From: a virus
Taxonomy: Duplodnaviria; Caudoviricetes
Virus record (IMG/VR): IMGVR_UViG_3300035670_000220
Span: 1 to 60,828 of that record
Reading direction: 5' to 3' (one strand)
Length of the DNA: 60,828 nt
The position numbers were made by a program, and so were the translations under genes. Below, piece by piece: positions 18,974-58,077 of this stretch (position 1 is the first letter of the stretch; each line of letters begins with the position of its first letter). The notes beneath the pieces were generated by a model. The model worked only from the letters and a program-made list of their open reading frames with translations, had not been told where the DNA came from and did not search any database.

Positions 18974-19522
18974 GTGTGGAAACCAGCGGACAATCTCAAT
19001 TGGCAAGAGGGAGCGCTCTGTGCCAAACCGCAGAACAGAGAGTCAAGAGACTGGTTTTTCTCCAAAGACCCGCAAGACAGGTATAACGCAAAGAACCTAT
19101 GCTACGGATGTCCTGTAAGAGAGCAGTGTATCCAGTGGGCTCTTGAGCATCGTCAAATTTGGGGAATTTGGGGCGGCAAAGACGAAGTAGAAATTCGTCG
19201 TGCTCTATCTGTCTCATACAAAGGTGAAGAGACAAGAAGGCGTAGATATCCACACTGCCCTTACTGCAGCGCAAGGCCATCAAAACTAGAGACAAGCTCT
19301 CAGGAGATGTCTGGTGGCGGTCGATGGACTACAGCAAAGATTGTGACATGCACAGTGTGTGGGTTTTCTTGGCGCAGTCGAACCAGCGTAAACGCCGTGC
19401 TTGCTTATCAACTTGAGCGAGAGCAAAAGTCTGAGAAGAAGCAGAAAGAGCGTGAACGAAAGGCTCGAATTCGTGAGAGAGAAAAGGCTCGTGCGAAGGC
19501 TAAGACTAAGAAGTCTTCTTAA
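18974..19522 (+). CDS. whiB: WhiB-family transcription factor (copy 2) fused to a Zn-ribbon and basic tail
   Basis: WQEGALC...AKNLCYGCPVREQC...GIWGG, then CPYC...CTVC and a K/R/E-rich tail; TAGTAT-N6-GTG leaderless start. Confidence 0.9.
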   Translation: MWKPADNLNWQEGALCAKPQNRESRDWFFSKDPQDRYNAKNLCYGCPVREQCIQWALEHRQIWGIWGGKDEVEIRRALSVSYKGEETRRRRYPHCPYCSARPSKLETSSQEMSGGGRWTTAKIVTCTVCGFSWRSRTSVNAVLAYQLEREQKSEKKQKERERKARIREREKARAKAKTKKSS

Positions 19523-20576
19523 GCTCTGCTTCGCAGAACATTAAGTTGTTCTTTAGTCTCTCATTTTCTGGTTCAAACTCAAGAGCACCCCGTGCATGAG
19601 TGGCAGCTATTTCATAAAATCCGAGTCGATACGCTGAAATTGATGCGTAATCGTAAGGAGCAGCTCCCCATGACTCTGCTTCACAAAGGTACTCAAGAGG
19701 CTTCTCTTTAATTGCAAGAGCGTCGTTGGCTGCTTCAAAACACTTTTGCCAATCTTGACGTTCGTAGTAGAGCTTTGCTAAATCAACATATGGTTCACGA
19801 CGCCCAGGGGCTTGGTCAATTGCCTTTCGGAACCAAATTTCTGCTTCTGCTGGCAGGCTCTTACCAATAAAACGCATTGATGCAGCACGCTCTGGTGCCC
19901 AAGTAGCGGTTGGAAGTTCTAGGTGTCTCTTAAGTTCTTGAGCCGCCTCTATGTATCTTCCGTAGAAGTACAACTCTCTACCGTAATAGAAAGCATTTCG
20001 GTCGTTGTAGGGGTCCTCCTTGACAGACATTGCAAGAAGAGGGAGATACTGGGACCTACTCTTAGTCGGGTCTGGGTAGTGGTGAGTTTCTAGACCTTCA
20101 ATCCACTCTTGCTTCTCTTCAATGCCGTAGGAGTAGATGCACTCGTGTACTGGGTGACGCCAGCGAAAGCCTTTGCGCCCGTGGATGTGGTCATAACTGA
20201 ACTCAAGGCCATTTGACCCATCTTCGTTGTGGGACCAAACATGCTTATATCGAGGTCTGTTTACTCCCCTGTTTTCCCAAGCTTCTGTAAGTAACTCTTT
20301 CCAACCCGGTGTGATGACTTCATCCATGTCAAGGGATACGCACATGTCGATGTCGATAGGAAGTGCAGCGAGCGCCGCGTTGCGTGCGTCGTCAAATCTC
20401 CAAGGACTAACACGAACATCGACAACGTTGATGCCCAACTCACGAGCTTTTTCCACCGTTCCATCTGTAGACCCAGTGTCTGCAATAAGTAGGTAATCAG
20501 CATCCTTGGCTGACTCATACCACTTCTCAACGAACTGCAACTCGTTGAGCGCAATTGTGTAGACGGCTACCTTCAT
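19506..20576 (-). CDS. GT2-family glycosyltransferase with C-terminal TPR repeats
   Basis: VYTIALNE...DTGSTDGT...FDDARNAAL...LDMDE (DxD)...HPVHE, then TPR-like helices (FYYGRELY, KAIDQAPGRREPY). Confidence 0.88.
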   Translation of the reverse strand: MKVAVYTIALNELQFVEKWYESAKDADYLLIADTGSTDGTVEKARELGINVVDVRVSPWRFDDARNAALAALPIDIDMCVSLDMDEVITPGWKELLTEAWENRGVNRPRYKHVWSHNEDGSNGLEFSYDHIHGRKGFRWRHPVHECIYSYGIEEKQEWIEGLETHHYPDPTKSRSQYLPLLAMSVKEDPYNDRNAFYYGRELYFYGRYIEAAQELKRHLELPTATWAPERAASMRFIGKSLPAEAEIWFRKAIDQAPGRREPYVDLAKLYYERQDWQKCFEAANDALAIKEKPLEYLCEAESWGAAPYDYASISAYRLGFYEIAATHARGALEFEPENERLKNNLMFCEAELKKTS

Positions 20577-25745: not shown

Positions 25746-28700
25746 CTACGCCTGAGCTTCAGACCATGACAGCTTAGCTGATGTTCTTGTTGTATTTCCA
25801 GTCAACCTAGCTACAGCAATTGTAATAATGTCAGGACCGTCTGGGAAGATGGAGCCTCCACCTAAGATTGAGTTAGAAAGCTCGAAAAGGCTTCCAACGT
25901 CTACTGTGGTTTCAATGTTTCCACCAGCAGCACGGAAGTTGTAAACCTGAACTCCACCAGACACTGTGTCTTGAGCGGTGTGCTCGACAATCTGGGTCAA
26001 GGAAGGTGAATCTACACCAACGAAGTTTAGGTTATTAAGACGCGGGTTCAGAAGCATCTTCACATCTACCAGTTCGTTACTGGAGATACCAACCTCTTTC
26101 AGTCTCAGCTGCATTCGGTTGATTACATCTCTATCGCCCAAACCACCAGTCAAACCTTCAGAAACTGATGGACTCAAGCGGAGCGAAATCAGTGGCTGAT
26201 AGTTAGGACCAGAGGTGTTGTTCAGCGAACCATTTGGGTATAAGAAGTAGGTGTACTGAATGTTTCCTTGGTTGGTGAAGTTGATAATTTCACCGATAGC
26301 CGCATTTGGAATTGGGGTAGATGCAACCGTAGCCGAACCAGTTACCGTAAAGGTAAAAGTTGTCGTGGATGTCACGGTTACTGAACCTACATAGTAACTA
26401 GGAAGGTTGGGAATAGCAGCTCCCGCAGCAGTCTCAATAAAGTAGAGACCGATGAAGTTGCTTGCTGGGATTCCGTGTGGAGTAGCAGTTGTAACGGTTA
26501 CAGTGCTTCCAGTTCTAGCAATTGTTGCACCAACAGTGATAACAGCATTTTCTGGGCTTAAATGAATCAAGTTAGGTGAGTTCACAAAGGCTTTGTACTT
26601 AGCACCATTTGTCAAGTTTGCAAACGTGTTAGAGCCCACCACCTGAGTTGCAGGGTTTTGGCTGTTTGGACCAGGGAACCCGTCGGCAGCAATTGACTGG
26701 AACTGAAGGACATCGCCTGAGCGGAATCCGTGTTCTAGCACCGTGAACAGGTCTGTATTTAGGTCAATACCAGCAGACGAGAACGACTTCGGAGTTGTTC
26801 CAGCGACGTTTAGAGTCTGGCTGCCAGCAGTGAAGAGGTAAGCGTTGTCGTCATCAAAACGACCATCCATCATTACCGAAGTACCCCAGTGGAAGAGGAA
26901 CGGAATGTAGGTTGGGTTTTCGAAGGTAGTTACTTCATATCTTGCTGGGAGGTTACCAGAGCGGAAGTAGGACTCAAAGAGGCTGTTGTTGTGAACAAAC
27001 TCGTGAGCGTATTGAACCTGACCGTCTGAAGTCTTGAAACCAAAACGAATCTTTCCAGCGCCGTACCATGAGTAATCCATGTAAATCATCTGGATGCGGC
27101 TTAGGTCAAGGTTGTAGCCAGTTACACCAGTGCCATCCAGAGGGTCAATAGAGAAGTCCTCTTGAGGAACCCTTGTGTCAACTGTCTTGGTTACAATAAT
27201 TCCAGACTTAGCTGGTGTAAACGAGTGAATGTTTGTTGTACCAACGCTGCTTAGGTTTACTGGAGTTTCTGCGTCTGGGCTACCCTTAAGTTTGAAAGCA
27301 TTGTTGTCAGTGCCTTCAGATGTAAGGTCTACATAATAAGTACGACCGTTGATAAGACCACCAATTGGCTCACCGTCAATCGAGTTATAGATTACTGGCA
27401 AAAGATTGCTGAATCCGTGACCAACAATCTCAAACATGTCGTTTGCTATATCCACAACTTCAGATGGGTCAAACTCTTTCTCTGGACCAGAGGAACCTTT
27501 ATACTCTGGTCGAACAGCCATACGAGTGTCACTATCAATTTCAACAATTCTGTAGGACTGACCGCGCATAACGATGTAGTCACCTACGTCAAACTGAGCT
27601 TGGAAGTTTGTTCCCGTACCGAAAATAAGTTCGGAACCTTGAAGAGCAGCTACAGTTCCAGCAGCCTGCTGGGTTGAAGAACGACGGACTGCGTAGAGTT
27701 TCTGACCGTCAAACTCGAAGAACATACCGTTCTGGAAGTCGAACATACCAGAGCGAACAGCACCGTTTTGCCAAGACATAACGTAGAACTGTGGGAATCC
27801 ATAAGCTTTAGGCTCAACAATTTCACCGTTTGCTGGGACTGTAAATGTTGTCAAGTCAATGACAGTTACTTGGAACTCTCCATTGTAGACAGAGCTTGGG
27901 TCTCCATAAGAGTCCTTTGCTTCACTCACTTCAATAGTCAGACCAGAAATTAGGCCATGTGGTCGTCTTGTCTTGACTTGAATTGTGGAGCTGCTTCCAA
28001 TTCGAGTCATGCTCTCAATGTCAATTGAAGGCTTGAAGTTGATACCAGCAGATGTCTGAATACCCTTACCTGACTGATAACGGAAGTACTTACGAGTCTG
28101 TCGAACAATCTGCGCGAAAGACGTTCCAGCTCCAGCAGACATCTCCACACCACCATCGAATGGACGGTGTAGTGAATAGCCCTCTGGTCGAACATAGATA
28201 AATGTTGGGTAGGAGTATGAAACAGCGTTGTAAGCAGTAGCGTAAGGACGGTCCACGGAAATCTGAGTGTCAGAACCAATAGCCGTAATACGACGAACGA
28301 TAGGACCTGATGGAGTTGTTCTGGTGAAAGTGAAGAATCCAGATTCACCAACAGTTCCTGTTGTAGAAATGTCTACAGTGTTTGAATCTGACTCAGCATC
28401 AGCCCTAGATGGGTGAAGTGTGTAAGAGTTTGCATCTACTGCTCGAACAAAGTAGTAATACTGGTCGATAAGGGGTGAAGGTGCTACTCCGCCTCCAGTA
28501 GAGAAAGTAACAGTGTCTCCAGTCGTAAACCCATGGTCAGCAATCACGATTCTGTTGTTTACAGTGTTGATATTGCCGGGAGTGAATGAGTTGACTAATG
28601 TTATGTTTGGTGGGAAAAGACGGAATCGGTCACCAACCTTCAAAATTTTGGAGAATGATGTACCAGTACCGTTTACAAGAACAGAACCAGCCTCAATAGT

Positions 28701-31700
28701 TACAGAACCAGAACCCGTGATATTTCCGTTGATTTGGTTTGTAATAAATTTGTGCGCGACTCCTGTACCGTAGTCATCAACTTCAAGAGTAACACCTGCA
28801 ACAGCATTTTCTGGCGTTGTAGCCAGCTTGATGTAGTCTCGGTTGATGGTTACCACATAGTAATGCTCTAAATCTGTTAGCCCAGTGATGACTGTTGCAG
28901 AGTCACCCTTGTCGTATTCAATTTCCGTACCAGTCAAGAAACCGTGCGACGGAATGTAGAAAGCGTTTAGGTTAAGGTCGATAGAAGTTCTAGGGTTGAA
29001 CGTTTTTGTGATTGTAGGAACACGACCAGCCGCACGAGCAGTAAAGCTTGTTGGCGATGGAACAGTAGCAATTGAGTAAATACCATCAGGGGTCTTGCTC
29101 AATGACTGGAGTGAGTGGACCCCAACACCAGCTGGGCTGGCTGTAAGGTCAACTGCAATTCCTGCATCAGCATCTTCAGGAGTCAAAGCAAGCTTGATAA
29201 GGTCTCCACTTACGAAGATAACGTAGTAAGGAGTTGCTGTTGTCAAACCACTGACTGGTGTCTGACCCTTTGCATCGTAAAGAACGAGTTCTTTTTGTAG
29301 GAACCCGTGGTTAGGTACAGTAATTGTGTTGTTGTCGTAATCAAGTGACACGATGAACAAGGATTGAGTTCCAGTACCTACTCCAGTGATGTTTGCAAAA
29401 CTGTTTAGGGCTGGAGTCAATGCAAGTCTTACAATGCTGGCGTTTTCCCTAAAGATGTAGTAAATGTTGTCATTTACTAGACCTGGAATGGTTGTTCCAC
29501 CACCGTTGTTGTATCTAACAGCCTGACCAGAGACCAGACCGTGGTTAGGAATAAAGAGACTGTCCTCAAGTTCGTTTACTGTAATGAAGATGAAGCTATG
29601 GCTAGTTCCTTCTCCTGGAGCAGTAAAGTTGATGTTGGTTGGGGCATCCAAAGCAACCTTTAGCTTGATTTGGTTAGCGTTCAGAACCTCAGACACATAG
29701 TAAGTAGTTAAATGTTGTAGAGGCGCGATAGAGCCGACATTAATACCAGCATCATTTCCGCTTCCGTTGTCATATCTAATAGGCTGGTCAACTGTAAATC
29801 CATGCGCTGTAATGGTGAGAGTATCAGTCACCGTGTTAACTACAACGCGGGAAAGAATGTCTGATTGGTCTGTTGAACGACCTGATGGAACTGTCAAGTT
29901 GACAGTTGAATATGTATCAGGAAGAGTTAGAGCCTGAAGCCTGTAAGTAAAGTTGTCTACCTTGTCTACATAGAGAATGTCGGTATTTGAAATACCAACT
30001 GGAGTAGCAGAATAGAACGTAGGTATTACAGCTTGGTTATCCACCAGACCATGCGGAGCTGCGCTGTAAATCAAATCATTATCAACATCGAAGTTAATAG
30101 GTACAAATGCGTGGTATGAATTTCCAGCAGCGCTTATAGAAATTCTGTTTGTTCCAGCATCAGCATCTGCTGCCGTTGGGTAAACCTCATTACCAGTTGT
30201 GAAGGATGATACCAAGGTCAAAACAACAGAGCCTTCGCCTGTGTTGTAGCTGCTTAGGTTAGTGATTGGGTTGCCATTAAATGTTGGTGCGCCATCGTAG
30301 TCACCTGTTGAAGTAGCAACATCTATTGCAGTAGTAGTGATATACGAACCACCACCACCACCAGACTCATTTGTTGCAGTGCTCTTAGCACCACCACCAC
30401 CTGAGTAGCCACCGCCACCACCAGACTGACCAGTGTTGGTTCCGTCAGAAGAACCACCACCACCAAAACCACCTTCTCCACCGATACGCGAACCGTTGGA
30501 GTTAGCAGTTAGTCCGTCTAAGAACGAACCGCCACCTTGCTCACCGAAAATCGAGTTTTCACCTCTTGAGAAGAAACCACCACCACCAGCAGACCTACCT
30601 CTGGTGTTTCCAATGTTTGCACGACCACCAAAACCAGGAGTCGTAGCGTTAGCTAGTGTGCCGTTTGTAGAAACTCCACCCAGCTGAGTTAGAACTGCAT
30701 CTTGACCAGAGAAAGCGTTAGGCTCTCCAGCACCACCACCAGCAACAAACAGAGGCTCATTACCAGTTTTACGAACAACAAATGTTCCACCACCAGAGCC
30801 ACCCCAAACGGTTCCGCTGTCTGGAGCAGAGCCTCGCTGGCCTACTGCAATAGTGATGATTTCGCCCTTTGTAAGAGAAACCTTTCCTCTTACAATTGCT
30901 CCTCGTCCAACGTTTGAGCTTGCGGTTACTGTACCGCTAGAAGAAGCCAAACCGATGTTTCCACTTGTTCTACTGTAAGTAAATTCAGTTGAGTTAATGA
31001 CTTCTAGAACTGTATATGTTCCGTTGTAAGTTCCGTTTGAAGCACTTGAAATTGTAAATGTTCTTCCGACAGCTAGCCCGTGAGCGGCTGTTGTTCTAAT
31101 TCTTGCTACGTTTGATGTAAGAGAAGTCTGATTAATTGTGCGGGTGTAGGAGCCAGTTCCTTCATAACCTGCAGCACCTCTAGCTTCAAACTGGTACAAA
31201 CCAGACACGGGAACTACCCAGTCTTGGTAGCCCTGAAAATCTCCCTGTTGGATGTACTGACCATGCCAGCTAGTTGAGTAGCCAGTCAAAATTTGTGCAG
31301 CAGTAGGTCCAACTCGACCAGTTTGACCGCAAGTTGTGAAAGTGTGGGTATTGCCTTGAATTGTGTAAAGAGACTGAACACCACTGAATGTGGCTTCTAC
31401 GTTCTTTAAAAAGTAAGTATTTCCACTTGTAAGACCTGTCATAGGGTCACCAGCGGTGTAGTACTTAACAGCTTGGTTAGTGGGGGTAGAGCTTCCAATG
31501 TTCAAAACTGATTCAGATAGAACAGGAGTGTTAAAAGTTACTCCACCCTCTGTTGAACCAGTAATGTCGATTTCGACATCTGAAGAATCTGTAAAAGATA
31601 GAACCCTTGGAGAAAGTCTTTGAGCGAATACCAAAGAACCATCTGGAAGACCAGCAACTTCTCCAACACCATCTGAATAGATGTAACTTGTGCCAGTTGT

Positions 31701-31817
31701 GATTGCAGAAGGAATATTTGAGTTCTTAAAGTAGATGAAGTTCTGGTCATCATTGACGTTCATGCGCCTAAATGAGTGAACCCCAGCCGCTCCAGCAGTT
31801 TGGATGTTTACAGCCAC
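25746..31817 (-). CDS. Giant (2023 aa) virion structural protein with a glycine-rich domain and many HG(F/L) beta-repeats
   Basis: Polyglycine domain, repeated HGF..G..V.Y...GL...YYV modules, and blocks RQTRKYFRYQSGKG and DYSWYGAGKIRFG recalled from large phage structural proteins. Confidence 0.75.
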   Translation of the reverse strand: MAVNIQTAGAAGVHSFRRMNVNDDQNFIYFKNSNIPSAITTGTSYIYSDGVGEVAGLPDGSLVFAQRLSPRVLSFTDSSDVEIDITGSTEGGVTFNTPVLSESVLNIGSSTPTNQAVKYYTAGDPMTGLTSGNTYFLKNVEATFSGVQSLYTIQGNTHTFTTCGQTGRVGPTAAQILTGYSTSWHGQYIQQGDFQGYQDWVVPVSGLYQFEARGAAGYEGTGSYTRTINQTSLTSNVARIRTTAAHGLAVGRTFTISSASNGTYNGTYTVLEVINSTEFTYSRTSGNIGLASSSGTVTASSNVGRGAIVRGKVSLTKGEIITIAVGQRGSAPDSGTVWGGSGGGTFVVRKTGNEPLFVAGGGAGEPNAFSGQDAVLTQLGGVSTNGTLANATTPGFGGRANIGNTRGRSAGGGGFFSRGENSIFGEQGGGSFLDGLTANSNGSRIGGEGGFGGGGSSDGTNTGQSGGGGGYSGGGGAKSTATNESGGGGGSYITTTAIDVATSTGDYDGAPTFNGNPITNLSSYNTGEGSVVLTLVSSFTTGNEVYPTAADADAGTNRISISAAGNSYHAFVPINFDVDNDLIYSAAPHGLVDNQAVIPTFYSATPVGISNTDILYVDKVDNFTYRLQALTLPDTYSTVNLTVPSGRSTDQSDILSRVVVNTVTDTLTITAHGFTVDQPIRYDNGSGNDAGINVGSIAPLQHLTTYYVSEVLNANQIKLKVALDAPTNINFTAPGEGTSHSFIFITVNELEDSLFIPNHGLVSGQAVRYNNGGGTTIPGLVNDNIYYIFRENASIVRLALTPALNSFANITGVGTGTQSLFIVSLDYDNNTITVPNHGFLQKELVLYDAKGQTPVSGLTTATPYYVIFVSGDLIKLALTPEDADAGIAVDLTASPAGVGVHSLQSLSKTPDGIYSIATVPSPTSFTARAAGRVPTITKTFNPRTSIDLNLNAFYIPSHGFLTGTEIEYDKGDSATVITGLTDLEHYYVVTINRDYIKLATTPENAVAGVTLEVDDYGTGVAHKFITNQINGNITGSGSVTIEAGSVLVNGTGTSFSKILKVGDRFRLFPPNITLVNSFTPGNINTVNNRIVIADHGFTTGDTVTFSTGGGVAPSPLIDQYYYFVRAVDANSYTLHPSRADAESDSNTVDISTTGTVGESGFFTFTRTTPSGPIVRRITAIGSDTQISVDRPYATAYNAVSYSYPTFIYVRPEGYSLHRPFDGGVEMSAGAGTSFAQIVRQTRKYFRYQSGKGIQTSAGINFKPSIDIESMTRIGSSSTIQVKTRRPHGLISGLTIEVSEAKDSYGDPSSVYNGEFQVTVIDLTTFTVPANGEIVEPKAYGFPQFYVMSWQNGAVRSGMFDFQNGMFFEFDGQKLYAVRRSSTQQAAGTVAALQGSELIFGTGTNFQAQFDVGDYIVMRGQSYRIVEIDSDTRMAVRPEYKGSSGPEKEFDPSEVVDIANDMFEIVGHGFSNLLPVIYNSIDGEPIGGLINGRTYYVDLTSEGTDNNAFKLKGSPDAETPVNLSSVGTTNIHSFTPAKSGIIVTKTVDTRVPQEDFSIDPLDGTGVTGYNLDLSRIQMIYMDYSWYGAGKIRFGFKTSDGQVQYAHEFVHNNSLFESYFRSGNLPARYEVTTFENPTYIPFLFHWGTSVMMDGRFDDDNAYLFTAGSQTLNVAGTTPKSFSSAGIDLNTDLFTVLEHGFRSGDVLQFQSIAADGFPGPNSQNPATQVVGSNTFANLTNGAKYKAFVNSPNLIHLSPENAVITVGATIARTGSTVTVTTATPHGIPASNFIGLYFIETAAGAAIPNLPSYYVGSVTVTSTTTFTFTVTGSATVASTPIPNAAIGEIINFTNQGNIQYTYFLYPNGSLNNTSGPNYQPLISLRLSPSVSEGLTGGLGDRDVINRMQLRLKEVGISSNELVDVKMLLNPRLNNLNFVGVDSPSLTQIVEHTAQDTVSGGVQVYNFRAAGGNIETTVDVGSLFELSNSILGGGSIFPDGPDIITIAVARLTGNTTRTSAKLSWSEAQA

Positions 31818-55230: not shown

Positions 55231-55372
55231 TTTTCCGGGCTCCCTTTCCGTCACTCATAAGGAGGCTGCTCTGAAATACAGCCAAGGGGCGGATAATTTT
55301 GCTGATGAGGTGGGCAAGGTAACCCCTCCATGAGTAGGTTCTCCTGTGCCTTGATTCTTTTCTAGATTTCAT
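55220..55372 (-). CDS. Small basic protein (50 aa), absent from the ORF track
   Basis: Hand translation MKSRKESRHRRTYSWRGYLAHLISKIIRPLAVFQSSLLMSDGKGARKNDF; its ATG ends a copy of the repeated motif. Confidence 0.5.
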   Translation of the reverse strand: MKSRKESRHRRTYSWRGYLAHLISKIIRPLAVFQSSLLMSDGKGARKNDF

Positions 55373-55392
55373 TTTTCCGGGCTCTCGTTCCG

Positions 55393-55800
55393 TTATTGTT
55401 TGAATTTGAGGCGACGAAGAACGTCATCCACCCGAACAAGTCTCCCGATGGAGGCGTTGGTGTTTTCGTTGTGGATTGGTTGGCGTGTTTCAGGGGGGTC
55501 AACCTCGCGCATCAACTCCTTGAGGGCTTCGGTTCTAATGATGATGAACCCGTCACCCGTTGGGGATGCCTCCACCCACCACTTTGCCTCCGTGATGTTG
55601 ATTCCCGAAAGAATCTCGTAGTCGCGGTTGTATTGGCGAGTTTCGATATAAAAGTTGCCAGTCTCGGCTGCTCGGTAGTCGGTCTTTACCTCGTGCAGTC
55701 CTTCTAAGACATCGGCAAGAAACTCTTCGTGGGAGTTCTCTCCGACCTTGCCCCGTTGAAAGTCAACGTCGAACTTGGGGCTGTATCCGTCATTCGTCAT
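55393..55800 (-). CDS. PD-(D/E)XK-like phage nuclease-fold protein
   Basis: G..GE...EVKTD...TGNFYIE...SGI..TEA pattern; leaderless TAGTAT-N6-ATG. Confidence 0.6.
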   Translation of the reverse strand: MTNDGYSPKFDVDFQRGKVGENSHEEFLADVLEGLHEVKTDYRAAETGNFYIETRQYNRDYEILSGINITEAKWWVEASPTGDGFIIIRTEALKELMREVDPPETRQPIHNENTNASIGRLVRVDDVLRRLKFKQ

Positions 55801-55910
55801 AGAAAAATACTACCAACGAAGATAGTATCCCTCAAGATACTTTCATAAAACGAAAGATATCTTTCATTATATGAAAACGTGATTTTCCGGGGTCACGCTC
55901 CGTAAACACC

Positions 55911-55942
55911 AAACCCCCCTGCAGATGAAACTACAGAGGGGT
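55911..55942 (-). terminator. Intrinsic terminator-like hairpin ending the putative ncRNA
   Basis: Minus strand ACCCCTCTGTAG-TTTCAT-CTGCAGGGGGGT then TT; the G-U pairs form only on the minus strand. Confidence 0.6.
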
Positions 55943-55949
55943 AGGGGTG

Positions 55950-56123
55950 AGTAGGTGGGTTGCTTTTTACCACCACGGCCTAGCCAACGGTCCAGTAGTA
56001 CCGCTTTGAGCCGACCTGTCGTTCGGTCGCTAACCACCCCGCTAGGGGCCGACAGTGCGTTTCTCCCCCATTGGCAGTGGGAGCGATTCCGCCATACTCC
56101 AGCTCTCCCGTCGGATTGCTGTT
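55950..56123 (-). ncRNA. Putative independently transcribed structured RNA with a pseudoknot
   Basis: Own promoter and terminator; stems CCGACGG/CTGTCGG, CTCCCA/TGGGGG, GGCC..TAGC/GCTAGGCC, GACC/GGTC, AGCGGT/ACCGTT, GGTGG/CCACC; TGGCGG can pair with loop CTGCCA. Confidence 0.7.
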
Positions 56124-56130
56124 AAAAAGA

Positions 56131-56159
56131 AAAATAACTTCAAAGAAACAGAAAGTCAA
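56131..56159 (-). promoter_or_regulatory. Promoter for the 55.95-56.12 kb RNA
   Basis: Minus strand TTGACT-N17-TATTTT; predicted start near A56123. Confidence 0.65.
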
Positions 56160-56172
56160 GCTTTTTGGGGTG

Positions 56173-56262
56173 AAGACCTAGTACTTGCTTTCGCTTTCCC
56201 ACCTGCGCTGCCCCAAGGCGTTACTCAGGTCGTCCCAAACTTTCGCTCTGCAGGTTGGTCTT
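56173..56262 (-). ncRNA. Putative compact structured RNA downstream of the tRNA-like element
   Basis: AAGACC/GGTCTT closing stem, ACCTGC/GCAGGT, two C-GAAA-G tetraloops and a GAA/AGTA loop-E-like motif. Confidence 0.55.
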
Positions 56263-56287
56263 GTGGACTCTACAGTAAAGGGCCTAA

Positions 56288-56359
56288 GCGCCGCGTCAAG
56301 GAATTGAACCCTGCTAATCGGTTTTGGAGACCGATTTCCTCCCAGAGGCCACGACTTGC
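56288..56359 (-). tRNA. tRNA-Trp(CCA)-like element with defective acceptor stem (pseudo-tRNA)
   Basis: Anticodon arm ATCGGT-CTCCAAA-ACCGAT, T arm CAGGG-TTCAATT-CCTTG, short D arm CCTC-TGG-GAGG; acceptor strands GCAAGTCGT/ACGCGGCGC have four central mismatches; no encoded CCA end. Confidence 0.7.
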
Positions 56360-56367
56360 TTTTTTAT

Positions 56368-56376
56368 TGTAACACT
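56368..56376 (-). promoter_or_regulatory. Extended -10 promoter for the tRNA-like element
   Basis: Minus strand TGTTACAAT just upstream of G56359, separated by an A-run. Confidence 0.6.
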
Positions 56377-56908
56377 ACTGGTGAGGGTTTTTTGGAAGAG
56401 AGCCATCTTTTCGCGCACTTGGCTGGCGATACCAAATTCTTTCAACCAGCTCTGTAGTCGAATAACTGTGCTTTCGGGAGTTGTAATAAATCTCGATGTC
56501 GTGAGCCATGCAGTACTCCTTGCCCGTGAAGTCCTTTCCTGCGTACTCTTCCCCAACGATGCGGACATTAAAATCAAGAGTCTTGATGAGATTAAGCAAG
56601 TCGTCTTCAGTCTCGTAAACAATAACTCTGTCTACATACTTGACTGCCTCAAGTTGGATTTGGCGCTCCACCAGAGATTGAATTGGTTTGCGCTTTTCTT
56701 TTGGTCTGTCGATGCTGGGGTCAGTCTGCAAACCAACAATGAGATAGTCACACACCGACCGTGCCTCTTTGAGCATCAAAATATGACCTGCGTGGAGGAG
56801 GTCGAAAGCGGAGCAAGTGAAACCGACCTTGGGTTCGCCCCACCGCTTCAGTTCGTCAAATAAGTAGTTAGCGTCTTCGCCTTCATAGCCGAGTGCTGTC
56901 AAGTCCAT
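56375..56908 (-). CDS. Cytidylyltransferase (TagD/RfaE-like, HxGH family)
   Basis: FTCSAFDLLHAGH, LIVGLQTD, KPIQSLVER, YSTT; start re-placed at the ATG of the repeated motif. Confidence 0.9.
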   Translation of the reverse strand: MDLTALGYEGEDANYLFDELKRWGEPKVGFTCSAFDLLHAGHILMLKEARSVCDYLIVGLQTDPSIDRPKEKRKPIQSLVERQIQLEAVKYVDRVIVYETEDDLLNLIKTLDFNVRIVGEEYAGKDFTGKEYCMAHDIEIYYNSRKHSYSTTELVERIWYRQPSARKDGSLPKNPHQ

Positions 56909-56970
56909 TTTTCCGGGCTCTCTTTCCGTCCCTAATGTCAAAACCGTACCAGTTTCGGTACTGTTTTTCC

Positions 56971-57150
56971 ATGAGCAAGTTTGGGTGGTGCATGGATGGC
57001 AACGATGAACGGTGCCGAGTCCATTATATTGACTGGAACAACGAAGTGCGGGAATGCTCCTGTTCGTGCCACGAAGGCAAACCAAAGCCTCCTTTGCCCG
57101 AAAGAAAGGCAGTTGTGGAAAAGCCAATCAAGGGCAGGAAGAAGAAGTAA
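56971..57150 (+). CDS. Small Cys/His-rich protein with basic tail
   Basis: MSKFGWCMDG...C...CSCSCH; leaderless TACTGT-N6-ATG. Confidence 0.65.
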   Translation: MSKFGWCMDGNDERCRVHYIDWNNEVRECSCSCHEGKPKPPLPERKAVVEKPIKGRKKK

Positions 57151-57160
57151 TGTGTAATAC

Positions 57161-57328
57161 ATGCTTGAAAAAACGCCGATGGCAAACGAGTGCTACAAGC
57201 GGTTTTTGCACCTGGAGCTAAAACGACAAGAAGAAGTTGTTTTGTCCTTGGAGGCCAATTTGCGAATGGCCCGCCAAAACCTCGAATGGCTTCGTGAAGA
57301 AATCGAAGAATCAAAGTCCGAGTCTTAA
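57161..57328 (+). CDS. Small coiled-coil protein (55 aa), absent from the ORF track
   Basis: Hand translation MLEKTPMANECYKRFLHLELKRQEEVVLSLEANLRMARQNLEWLREEIEESKSES; fills the gap. Confidence 0.5.
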   Translation: MLEKTPMANECYKRFLHLELKRQEEVVLSLEANLRMARQNLEWLREEIEESKSES

Positions 57329-57363: not shown

Positions 57364-58077
57364 GTGCTGCATGAGTGGAAGCTGGACGGAATAACCCGAA
57401 ACTTTGGGGACGCTCTCTGGGAAGTGATTCTCCCCGAGGCGGTTGTTCGCGACCTCGAAAGCGACTCCGAGCACATGTACTTCCCTATCGGAAGCGTTAT
57501 CTGTAACCAAGTTATTCTAGAGACACTTGGTCTTGGCCTAAAACCAGTTTTTATTAACTGTGGCTGGAGAGGCGAAGAATTAGACCCAGAGTTAGTTGCT
57601 GAATGCGACTTTATCGGCGCTCGCGGGCCATACACCCAGGGTGAGCTAGCTAATCACGGTGTGGTTGTCGAGGTAACTGGAGACCCAGCCTACAAACTGC
57701 CTAGTTTGATTGAGAAGGGTTCACCTAACGCTCTTGCCATTGTTGTCAGGCACATCGAAGACCAGTCGGACTACAACCAAGACTCCATCTTTGAACTCAA
57801 GGCTGATGCGATATTCAGCCCTGTTGTTGAGACAAAAGAAGACATTATTGAGTTCATCCAAACAATCTCGGGGGCACGCTTTGTGCTTGCTGGCTCTATG
57901 CACGCCGCGATTGTGGCGCACGCTTATGGGGTCCCCTTTGCTCCAATGTTGGGGCATGACAGTTATGTCAACTGTCCAGCGAAGTGGTGGGATTGGTTTG
58001 CAGCCAATGACTTAGGTCAGCCTTACTTTGCCAAAGATATCGTTGATGGCAGAGCATGGCACAGACAACAGTTCTAG
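57364..58077 (+). CDS. Polysaccharide pyruvyl transferase-like protein
   Basis: NFGDAL, IGSVI, ARGPYT, GDPA and SMHAAIVAHAYGVP motifs (ExoV-like). Confidence 0.82.
   Translation: MLHEWKLDGITRNFGDALWEVILPEAVVRDLESDSEHMYFPIGSVICNQVILETLGLGLKPVFINCGWRGEELDPELVAECDFIGARGPYTQGELANHGVVVEVTGDPAYKLPSLIEKGSPNALAIVVRHIEDQSDYNQDSIFELKADAIFSPVVETKEDIIEFIQTISGARFVLAGSMHAAIVAHAYGVPFAPMLGHDSYVNCPAKWWDWFAANDLGQPYFAKDIVDGRAWHRQQF

Follow-up and report, generated by a model that had tools for sequence, protein, structure and literature searches.

A cryo-electron microscopy (cryo-EM) preprint of July 2026 reports that manA RNAs assemble into a 60-subunit icosahedral-like cage, decamers and octamers (bioRxiv 10.64898/2026.07.01.735769). 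According to this preprint, the oligomers are built from pentamers via intermolecular kissing loops, and it still repeats the cis-regulatory label of manA. The cis-regulatory hypothesis is also repeated in the paper on S-CREM1 (PMC9964418). The phage RNAs ROOL and GOLLD, which are often found near tRNA islands, are described as forming nanocages, and the GOLLD cage is a 14-mer (Kretsch et al. 2025, PMC12286853). One more phage-borne RNA, the cyanophage motif wcaG (RF01761), was described together with manA and was proposed to be cis-regulatory (PMC2864571). Here we analyze an RNA of the manA family (Rfam RF01745) that is located on the minus strand of a 60,828-nucleotide (nt) stretch of viral DNA, referred to below as the window. 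The window is the IMG/VR virus record IMGVR_UViG_3300035670_000220 (Duplodnaviria; Caudoviricetes), which is 46% complete and has a G+C content of 47.6%. On the minus strand, positions 56159-55903 contain, in that order, a promoter-like pair, a G+C-rich well-folding stretch and a terminator-like hairpin.

Family and subfamily of the RNA

The RNA was delimited in the window by two models.

55940-56122, minus strand: manA-family RNA according to the subfamily model R1 (180.9 bits)
55944-56118, minus strand: the same RNA according to the Rfam model RF01745

Using a permissive Rfam scan of positions 55600-56500, we found that RF01745 matches this RNA with 52.0 bits (E 3e-12). The match covers model positions 1-192 of 192 and is not truncated. 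A repeat Rfam scan of the window RNA confirmed the manA match (E 4.7e-14). The gathering cut-off of RF01745 is 55.2 bits, and the scan of the whole window at gathering thresholds gave no matches, manA included. Of the three hairpins that the Rfam model has in the P3 domain (model positions 72-115), the window RNA and its relatives keep two; the third (98-115) is deleted. The signature UG..GGUA.A.AG.AA.CC..CC is common to the window RNA and classical manA. Judged by these matches, the window RNA is a manA RNA homologue narrowly missed by the curated threshold.

A preliminary description of this locus, made from the letters of the DNA, had claimed a self-contained pseudoknotted non-coding RNA gene on the minus strand, with no credible open reading frame (ORF). 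This held true; the RNA is about 180 nt long and adjoins a tRNA in a phage. It had also been foreseen that a strong Rfam match would remove the novelty of the RNA while confirming the RNA itself, and the match to RF01745 did just that. The structured RNA at the locus is real, yet it is a divergent manA relative and no new class. The minus strand folds at -95.0 kcal/mol (z -3.10; 1 of 200 shuffles is as good), against z -1.01 for the plus strand, for which 31 of 200 shuffles are as good. The four ORFs overlapping the RNA stretch (56-105 amino acids, aa) have no Pfam match.

Relatives were gathered by pattern scans of IMG/VR with stretches of the window RNA. It turned out that 15 of the 16 loci found by these patterns carry an Rfam manA match of 37-67 bits, and seven of these 15 are over the cut-off (55.5-67 bits). 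In a separate Rfam test of subfamily matches, four of five were over it. The Rfam cut-off misses over half of the subfamily matches, so that current annotations under-count the manA family. We built the covariance model R1 from 14 relatives (alignment A2). R1 gave 41 matches (35 distinct sequences) with 72.6-201.5 bits, and the window RNA, with 180.9 bits, is in the upper half of the 41. The same model gave 16.6-38.5 bits on 102 classical marine manA copies collected by the 3' signature of the family. The subfamily and classical manA are thus separated under R1 by a gap of more than 30 bits. In terms of these scores, the window RNA belongs to a distinct manA subfamily with 35 distinct copies and one hairpin fewer. 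It keeps every position that is invariant in alignment A2. A further pattern of 14 bases is too short: about 87 of the 114 viral loci that it found are chance matches, and its scan of bacterial-genome contigs, in which none of 120 loci matched R1, says nothing on bacterial genomes or prophages.

Two of the R1 matches, L016 393-632 and L158 400-636 (both on the minus strand; 72.6 and 76.9 bits), are divergent copies whose P3 domain carries a large insertion and whose P5 loop is altered. L016 also has a normal copy 130 nt downstream of the divergent one, with a tRNA between them.

Helices and pseudoknots

The fold assigned to the window RNA contains the following elements.

56100-56121, minus strand: P1, a nine-position stem (56121-56113 with 56108-56100) with the loop GACG; two central non-pairs in the window copy
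56099-56095 with 55953-55949, minus strand: PK1, a pseudoknot of the strand after P1 (5' strand GAGUA) with the strand after P5 (UACUC)
56057-56092, minus strand: P2 (56092-56090 with 56059-56057), enclosing the conserved GAA internal loop and the hairpin P2a
56083-56079 with 56067-56063, minus strand: P2a, the hairpin inside P2
56075-56072 with 55986-55983, minus strand: PK2', pairing of the P2a loop strand GCCA with UGGC in the 3' internal strand of P4
56016-56055, minus strand: P3 (56055-56050 with 56021-56016), enclosing P3a and P3b
56048-56045 with 56040-56037, minus strand: P3a, from the Rfam alignment and the helix count
56035-56033 with 56027-56025, minus strand: P3b, from the Rfam alignment and the helix count
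55976-56013, minus strand: P4 (56013-56007 with 55982-55976), enclosing P4a and the 3' strand of PK2'; one mismatch in the window copy
56004-56001 with 55990-55987, minus strand: P4a
55974-55970 with 55958-55954, minus strand: P5, GGUGG/CCACC, followed by the PK1 3' strand UACUC (55953-55949)

The tested structure was the Rfam-type fold with P1 extended to nine positions, a third P2 pair and PK1, and it was assessed on the 35 distinct sequences, to which the subfamily counts of this section refer. In this structure 91.9% of cells are paired and both-side changes occur in 43 of 51 pairs. None of 500 shuffles reaches these values, and slid controls give 34-44%. P1 shows both-side changes in eight of nine pairs, with 89.8% of cells paired. 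The third P2 pair is paired in every copy by five pair types (UG 16, AU 8, UA 5, GC 4, CG 2). Compensatory changes were found in all five pairs of P2a and in four of the five pairs of P5, and P5 is 100% paired. Covariation among the copies supports the Rfam-type fold, the longer P1 and two pseudoknots.

Some of the elements drawn in the preliminary description were found again in this structure. The hairpin GGTGG/CCACC (55974-55954) and the hairpin at 56083-56063 are real and covary. Two larger helices did not survive the comparison. The closing helix CCGACGG/CTGTCGG is 67.3% paired in the 35 homologues, with 451 of 500 shuffles as good. The helix GGCC-CC-TAGC/GCTAGGCC is 66.4% paired, is equalled by 33 of 500 shuffles and has no excess of compensatory changes. 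The strand AGTA, read as part of a loop E-like motif, is instead the 5' strand of PK1 (GAGUA, 56099-56095).

PK1 is perfectly paired in the window. In the subfamily it is 97.7% paired, with one compensatory copy. There is little PK1 variation within the subfamily because the search patterns fixed its 5' strand. In classical manA, PK1 is GGGAG/CUCCC, with AGGAG/CUCCU in two and GGGUG/CACCC in two of 49 copies. When the subfamily is compared with classical manA, three of the five PK1 pairs are compensatory.

The four core pairs of PK2' are paired in 30, 35, 30 and 34 of the 35 sequences, and both-side changes occur in 2, 16, 14 and 5 of them. The covariation score of PK2' is 0.553, compared with 0.269±0.031 in shuffles (0 of 500 reach it), and slid controls give 17-46%. 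PK2' is the top pair outside the model in an all-against-all covariation scan, which gave no further run of covarying loop-loop pairs, and it is perfectly paired in the window. A pseudoknot of this GCCA loop had been proposed earlier. The loop does pair, but the covarying partner is UGGC at 55986-55983 and not the UGGC further upstream (56094-56091). The latter could pair with the loop in most sequences, its 5' side being fixed by the search patterns. We set it aside because positions 56092-56091 are in P2, whose third pair covaries, and because the downstream partner is better. Both candidate partners read UGGC in the window, so the earlier reader could not tell them apart.

In classical manA the strands of PK2' do not vary and are able to pair with each other (UGGCA and AAUGCC in 49 of 49 copies). 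The alignments thus indicate that the PK2' pairing is family-wide, yet it is visible only via this subfamily. The subfamily supplies the covariation that is lacking in the near-invariant classical set, for PK2' and, in part, for PK1. The variants of the pairing between the P2a loop and the P4 strand, 4-6 nt long, are GCUA/UAGC, GCCA/UGGC, GUCA/UGAC, UUCA/UGAA, GUUG/CAAC and GUCAAC/GUUGAC. The contact may be intramolecular or intermolecular, and the sequences fit both. If it is intermolecular, it would be a lineage-specific address by which the RNA of each phage assembles only with itself.

Gene context and rival explanations

The signals flanking the RNA are as follows.

56159-56131, minus strand: sigma-70-like promoter with -35 TTGACT (56159-56154), a 17-nt spacer and -10 TATTTT (56136-56131); 9 of 12 consensus matches
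55903-55942, minus strand: terminator-like element, a hairpin of 12 base pairs (7 G-C) at 55942-55913 followed by the tail TTTGGTGTTT

The promoter TTGACT-17-TATTTT is thus present as first described. Its -10 box ends 8 nt before the conserved 5' ACA of the RNA. In 15 of the 35 distinct copies, a promoter-like pair with at least 8 of 12 matches has a -10 box ending 7-9 nt before the same ACA. The terminator hairpin begins 6 nt after PK1 and overlaps no conserved helix. A hairpin with a T-run directly follows the motif in 22 of the 35 copies (25 were flagged, and three of these are tRNA sequence). In each of two RNA libraries, which come from different studies, one short contig falls inside the RNA. 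A 154-nt contig of X19 covers 55960-56101 and is 95-99% alike, and a 159-nt contig of X20 covers 56005-56101 and then diverges. Together they are a weak hint at expression, as both contigs are possibly from relatives and such libraries can hold DNA.

The RNA is located in an island of RNA genes. Upstream of it, the island contains two further elements.

56290-56358, minus strand: tRNA-Trp(CCA), called by ARAGORN, upstream of the manA RNA on the same strand
56165-56285, minus strand: el2, a second conserved structured RNA between the tRNA-Trp and the manA promoter, outside the manA RNA

A same-strand tRNA or transfer-messenger RNA (tmRNA) was found within short flanks of 21 of the 35 distinct copies, compared with 1 of 57 classical manA loci. 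In L183 the order is tRNA-Asn, Gly, Asp, the manA-type RNA (580-772), tRNA-Thr, His, Glu; in L148 the manA-type RNA follows a tmRNA. Where a copy directly follows a tRNA or tmRNA, the junction is identical in six of six cases: the acceptor end, AA, then ACAG, so that the RNA starts exactly 2 nt on. Two loci have a further tRNA beginning about 10 nt past PK1. Different neighbours are seen downstream of the copies (tRNA-Asn, Gly or Thr, el2, unrelated ORFs). In the window, the next gene is a 135-aa ORF on the same strand (55800-55393), which starts 113 nt past the terminator.

The window encodes a tape-measure protein, a PolA-type polymerase, a large terminase and two WhiB-like regulators. WhiB (PF02467) was also found over the cut-off in all five other carrier records tested, of which three are complete genomes (96-154 kb). 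Of 14 control genomes, Corynebacterium alone contained it. Given the general distribution of WhiB, the carriers are probably actinophages and not T4-like cyanophages. The RNA is single-copy in the three complete carrier genomes.

The presence of a stand-alone manA-family RNA gene at this locus is, in our opinion, probable. As a whole, the best explanation is a free-standing island gene with its own promoter and terminator that produces a discrete self-assembling RNA, and we hold this to be likely. Under this explanation, host RNA polymerase would start at about 56122-56124 at the sigma-70-like promoter and would stop at the intrinsic terminator 55942-55903. The product would be an RNA of about 180 nt with five helical elements and two pseudoknots, encoded after the tRNA-Trp and the second structured RNA in the island of a WhiB-encoding siphovirus-like phage. 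In related phages, the same RNA would be cut out of tRNA/tmRNA precursors. Since the RNA of the relatives lies inside such precursors, the functional unit would be a discrete RNA and not a leader controlling a downstream gene. By homology with the manA RNAs studied by cryo-EM, the folded RNA probably self-assembles into closed pentamer-based homo-oligomers, which would make it a compact counterpart, in function, of the nanocage RNAs ROOL and GOLLD known from phage tRNA islands. For the window copy itself, we consider the odds of oligomerization to be about even. Any role of the RNA in translation or tRNA biology is likewise something that we infer.

Several observations weigh against this explanation. 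The Rfam score of the window RNA is below the RF01745 cut-off (52.0 against 55.2 bits), and one hairpin of the model is missing. The search patterns fixed the 5' strand of PK1 and the sequence UGGC, so that invariance there is partly by construction. The helices of R1 were counted on an alignment fitted to R1, which favours nested helices, and the pseudoknots are outside the model. A promoter scan of the window region gave two sites versus 1.1±1.1 in shuffles, and a terminator scan gave three versus 2.1±1.4; neither, taken alone, is above chance. The T-run of the window terminator is interrupted (TTTGGTGTTT). The transcript ends, with the start near 56122-56124, and the stability of the RNA are predictions. 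In 14 of the 35 copies there is no tRNA or tmRNA in the short flanks examined. Oligomerization was shown in vitro for other members of the manA family. For the window copy, regulation by read-through into the 135-aa ORF is conceivable.

This last point leads to the reading of the RNA as a cis-acting manA riboswitch or attenuator, in which a metabolite-binding fold would be followed by the hairpin 55942-55913 as the expression platform for the 135-aa ORF. Rfam lists manA as Cis-reg, and Weinberg 2010 described it as a probable riboswitch in potential 5' untranslated regions (UTRs) (PMC2864571). The classical copies agree with the 5' UTR description given there: 113 of 117 distinct copies have a downstream ORF, and its median start is 45 nt downstream. 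In the window, too, a terminator directly follows the fold and is followed by a same-strand ORF. However, the subfamily RNA often lies within tRNA arrays, where the next gene is a tRNA or another RNA, and the downstream genes have no common functional class. The terminator begins past the last conserved helix and overlaps none, and no alternative pairing is evident. Neither a platform competing with an aptamer nor a consistent class of regulated genes, which are general features of riboswitches, was seen, and the window RNA lacks the 5' UTR position on which the Cis-reg label of manA relies. The only relative found of the 135-aa ORF (50% identity) has no manA RNA within 2.5 kb. The literature searched gave neither a ligand nor a validated regulation for manA RNA. 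We therefore consider a riboswitch or attenuator at this locus unlikely. The RNA could also be a passive module of the tRNA/tmRNA transcription unit (for example, a processing spacer or a structure that protects the 3' end), without function as a free RNA; it abuts tRNAs and tmRNA at fixed distances, and terminators follow. But about 45 covarying pairs, two pseudoknots and about 40 positions that stay invariant across actinophage and cyanophage lineages are more than a spacer would require, and many copies, including that of the window, have their own promoter and no directly attached tRNA. This makes a passive module quite improbable.

The sub-cut-off score, the two central non-pairs of P1 and the mismatch of P4 might also be taken as signs of a decaying, non-functional manA copy. 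The score of 180.9 bits in the upper half of the 41 subfamily matches, the retention of all positions invariant in A2 and the perfect pairing of both pseudoknots make decay very improbable. The preliminary description had favoured a new class of phage RNA unrelated to the described families, possibly a ribozyme or a protein decoy, or else a compact relative of GOLLD and ROOL. In line with novelty, the gathering Rfam scan of the window was empty, and a blastn search of 55300-57200 against GenBank phages gave no match. Nevertheless, the full-length RF01745 match (E 3e-12) has its helices and pseudoknot in the family order, sister sequences pass the manA cut-off, and the signature and both pseudoknots are common with classical manA. 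The RF01745 matches of the window and its relatives refute a new class as such, and we give this reading almost no credence. We found no evidence for a catalytic function or a protein decoy. A sequence relationship to GOLLD or ROOL also fell away: in 55600-56500, GOLLD, ROOL and raiA stayed without a match even with E allowed up to 10, and the scan of the whole window at gathering thresholds did not match them either.

The second structured element, el2, is about 120-150 nt long and has the core AGGCyCUUUACUGnnGAGUCCACAnnACCAACC...AGCGAAAGCU...GUGGGAAC...AGUACUAGGUCUUC. We found it in 26 viral contigs, where it mostly follows a phage tmRNA or tRNA-Leu and precedes tRNA-Asn. The short flanks contain a called tRNA or tmRNA in 17 of these contigs, and a manA-type RNA is located within 700 nt of el2 in ten. 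Compensatory changes were found in 7 of 27 predicted pairs with 8 sequences and in 5 of 22 with 24 sequences. An Rfam search gave no match for el2, which is possibly a so far undescribed RNA motif of such tRNA islands. If the cage reading of the manA RNA is true, el2 would be a further member of the RNA island.

Further observations concern the surroundings of the RNA. The best Rfam clan match of the tRNA-Trp(CCA) at 56290-56358 is tRNA-Sec with 23.8 bits, and no cut-off is reached. An A1/G72 mismatch was seen in it by eye, and it may be an atypical phage tRNA. In related phages (L379, L380, L381, L382, L388, L148 and others), a tmRNA heads the same RNA island, with the tags AESRSAFALAA, AERTSAFALAA, ANTSAYALAA and ATQNAYALAA; in the 46%-complete window no tmRNA was found. 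On the minus strand at 55800-55900, between the terminator and the 135-aa ORF, a TATAAT box is seen by eye near 55872-55867. Together with two imperfect copies of TGAAAG(A/T)ATCTT in the same region, it may be the own promoter/operator of the downstream gene. In classical loci (e.g., L024, L028, L037, L039 and L044), many marine manA copies are followed, at a distance of about 15 nt, by a recurrent conserved hairpin AGACCUAAGAUGCAACUC...GGGCAGAUGGUCUU with a U-run, which is possibly a conserved terminator or a different small motif. ARAGORN also called a tRNA-Leu(AAG) at 30327-30415 (minus strand) inside the ORF of a 2023-aa virion protein (25746-31817, minus strand). It has no Rfam tRNA match at gathering and is probably a false positive. 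Genes for sugar-nucleotide and polysaccharide metabolism, noted as beside the RNA island, are located at 56375-57127 (minus strand), 57364-58077 (plus strand) and 19506-20576 (minus strand). Their products are cytidylyltransferase-like (resembling RfaE domain II), polysaccharide pyruvyl transferase and beta-1,4-glycosyltransferase proteins. They are reminiscent of the exopolysaccharide genes found near classical manA and wcaG RNAs.

Comparison with known systems

The window RNA and classical manA (RF01745) have the same helix order: P1, P2/P2a, a multi-hairpin P3 domain, P4/P4a and P5. Both have the terminal pseudoknot and the pairing of a loop with P4 (GGCA/UGCC in 49 of 49 classical copies, GCCA/UGGC in the window). 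The conserved GAAU, UAAgG-like and GGUAnAnAGnAAnCC segments are common to both, both are phage-borne, and their size is similar. In contrast to classical manA, the window RNA is without the third hairpin of the P3 domain. Its P1 has nine positions instead of six, and its PK1 is GAGUA/UACUC instead of GGGAG/CUCCC. The carriers also differ: WhiB-encoding siphovirus-like phages, whereas classical manA is found in T4-like cyanophages or Photobacterium (marine gamma-proteobacteria). The placement differs as well, since the subfamily RNA has its own promoter and terminator and is found in tRNA/tmRNA islands, whereas classical manA lies about 45 nt upstream of an ORF. The wcaG RNA (RF01761) has no match in the window and differs in fold. 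Phage T4, whose host is Escherichia coli, makes two small stable RNAs, C and D, of unknown function, which are co-transcribed with the T4 tRNA cluster and processed from it. The window RNA is like them in being a small RNA, presumably stable, that is tied to a phage tRNA cluster.

The subfamily, its probable host group, its placement in tRNA/tmRNA arrays and the covariation of PK2' are absent from the literature that we found; the supplements of the preprint may bear on the second pseudoknot and the variants tested. With this subfamily, manA-type RNAs extend beyond cyanophages into probable actinophages. The proximity to tRNA and tmRNA and the own promoters and terminators are hard to square with the cis-regulatory label carried since 2010. 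A free-standing manA gene in a tRNA island is in accord with the recent evidence for manA RNAs as cage builders and not switches. A wider proposal is that manA RNAs overall are no riboswitches but free cage RNAs that assemble by themselves and make up a third class next to ROOL and GOLLD, located in or near tRNA/tmRNA islands of phages of unrelated hosts; the pairing of the P2a loop with P4 may then be intermolecular. We put this forward as a tentative and still rather doubtful generalization.

The window RNA has no sequence or model similarity to ROOL and GOLLD, which are about 3-5 times longer and whose cages are dihedral, built differently from the pentamer-based manA assemblies. The ROOL cage is an 8-mer. 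The likeness lies elsewhere: these are structured RNAs of phages and prophages, with a role that is unknown, often beside tRNA islands, and they form RNA-only closed cages (PMC12286853), as is reported for manA RNAs. Thus, the functional analogy to GOLLD and ROOL drawn in the preliminary description still appears apt. A gene context like that of the cage-forming ROOL and GOLLD gives the cage observation on manA RNAs a biological setting, which is testable in cultivable actinophage systems.

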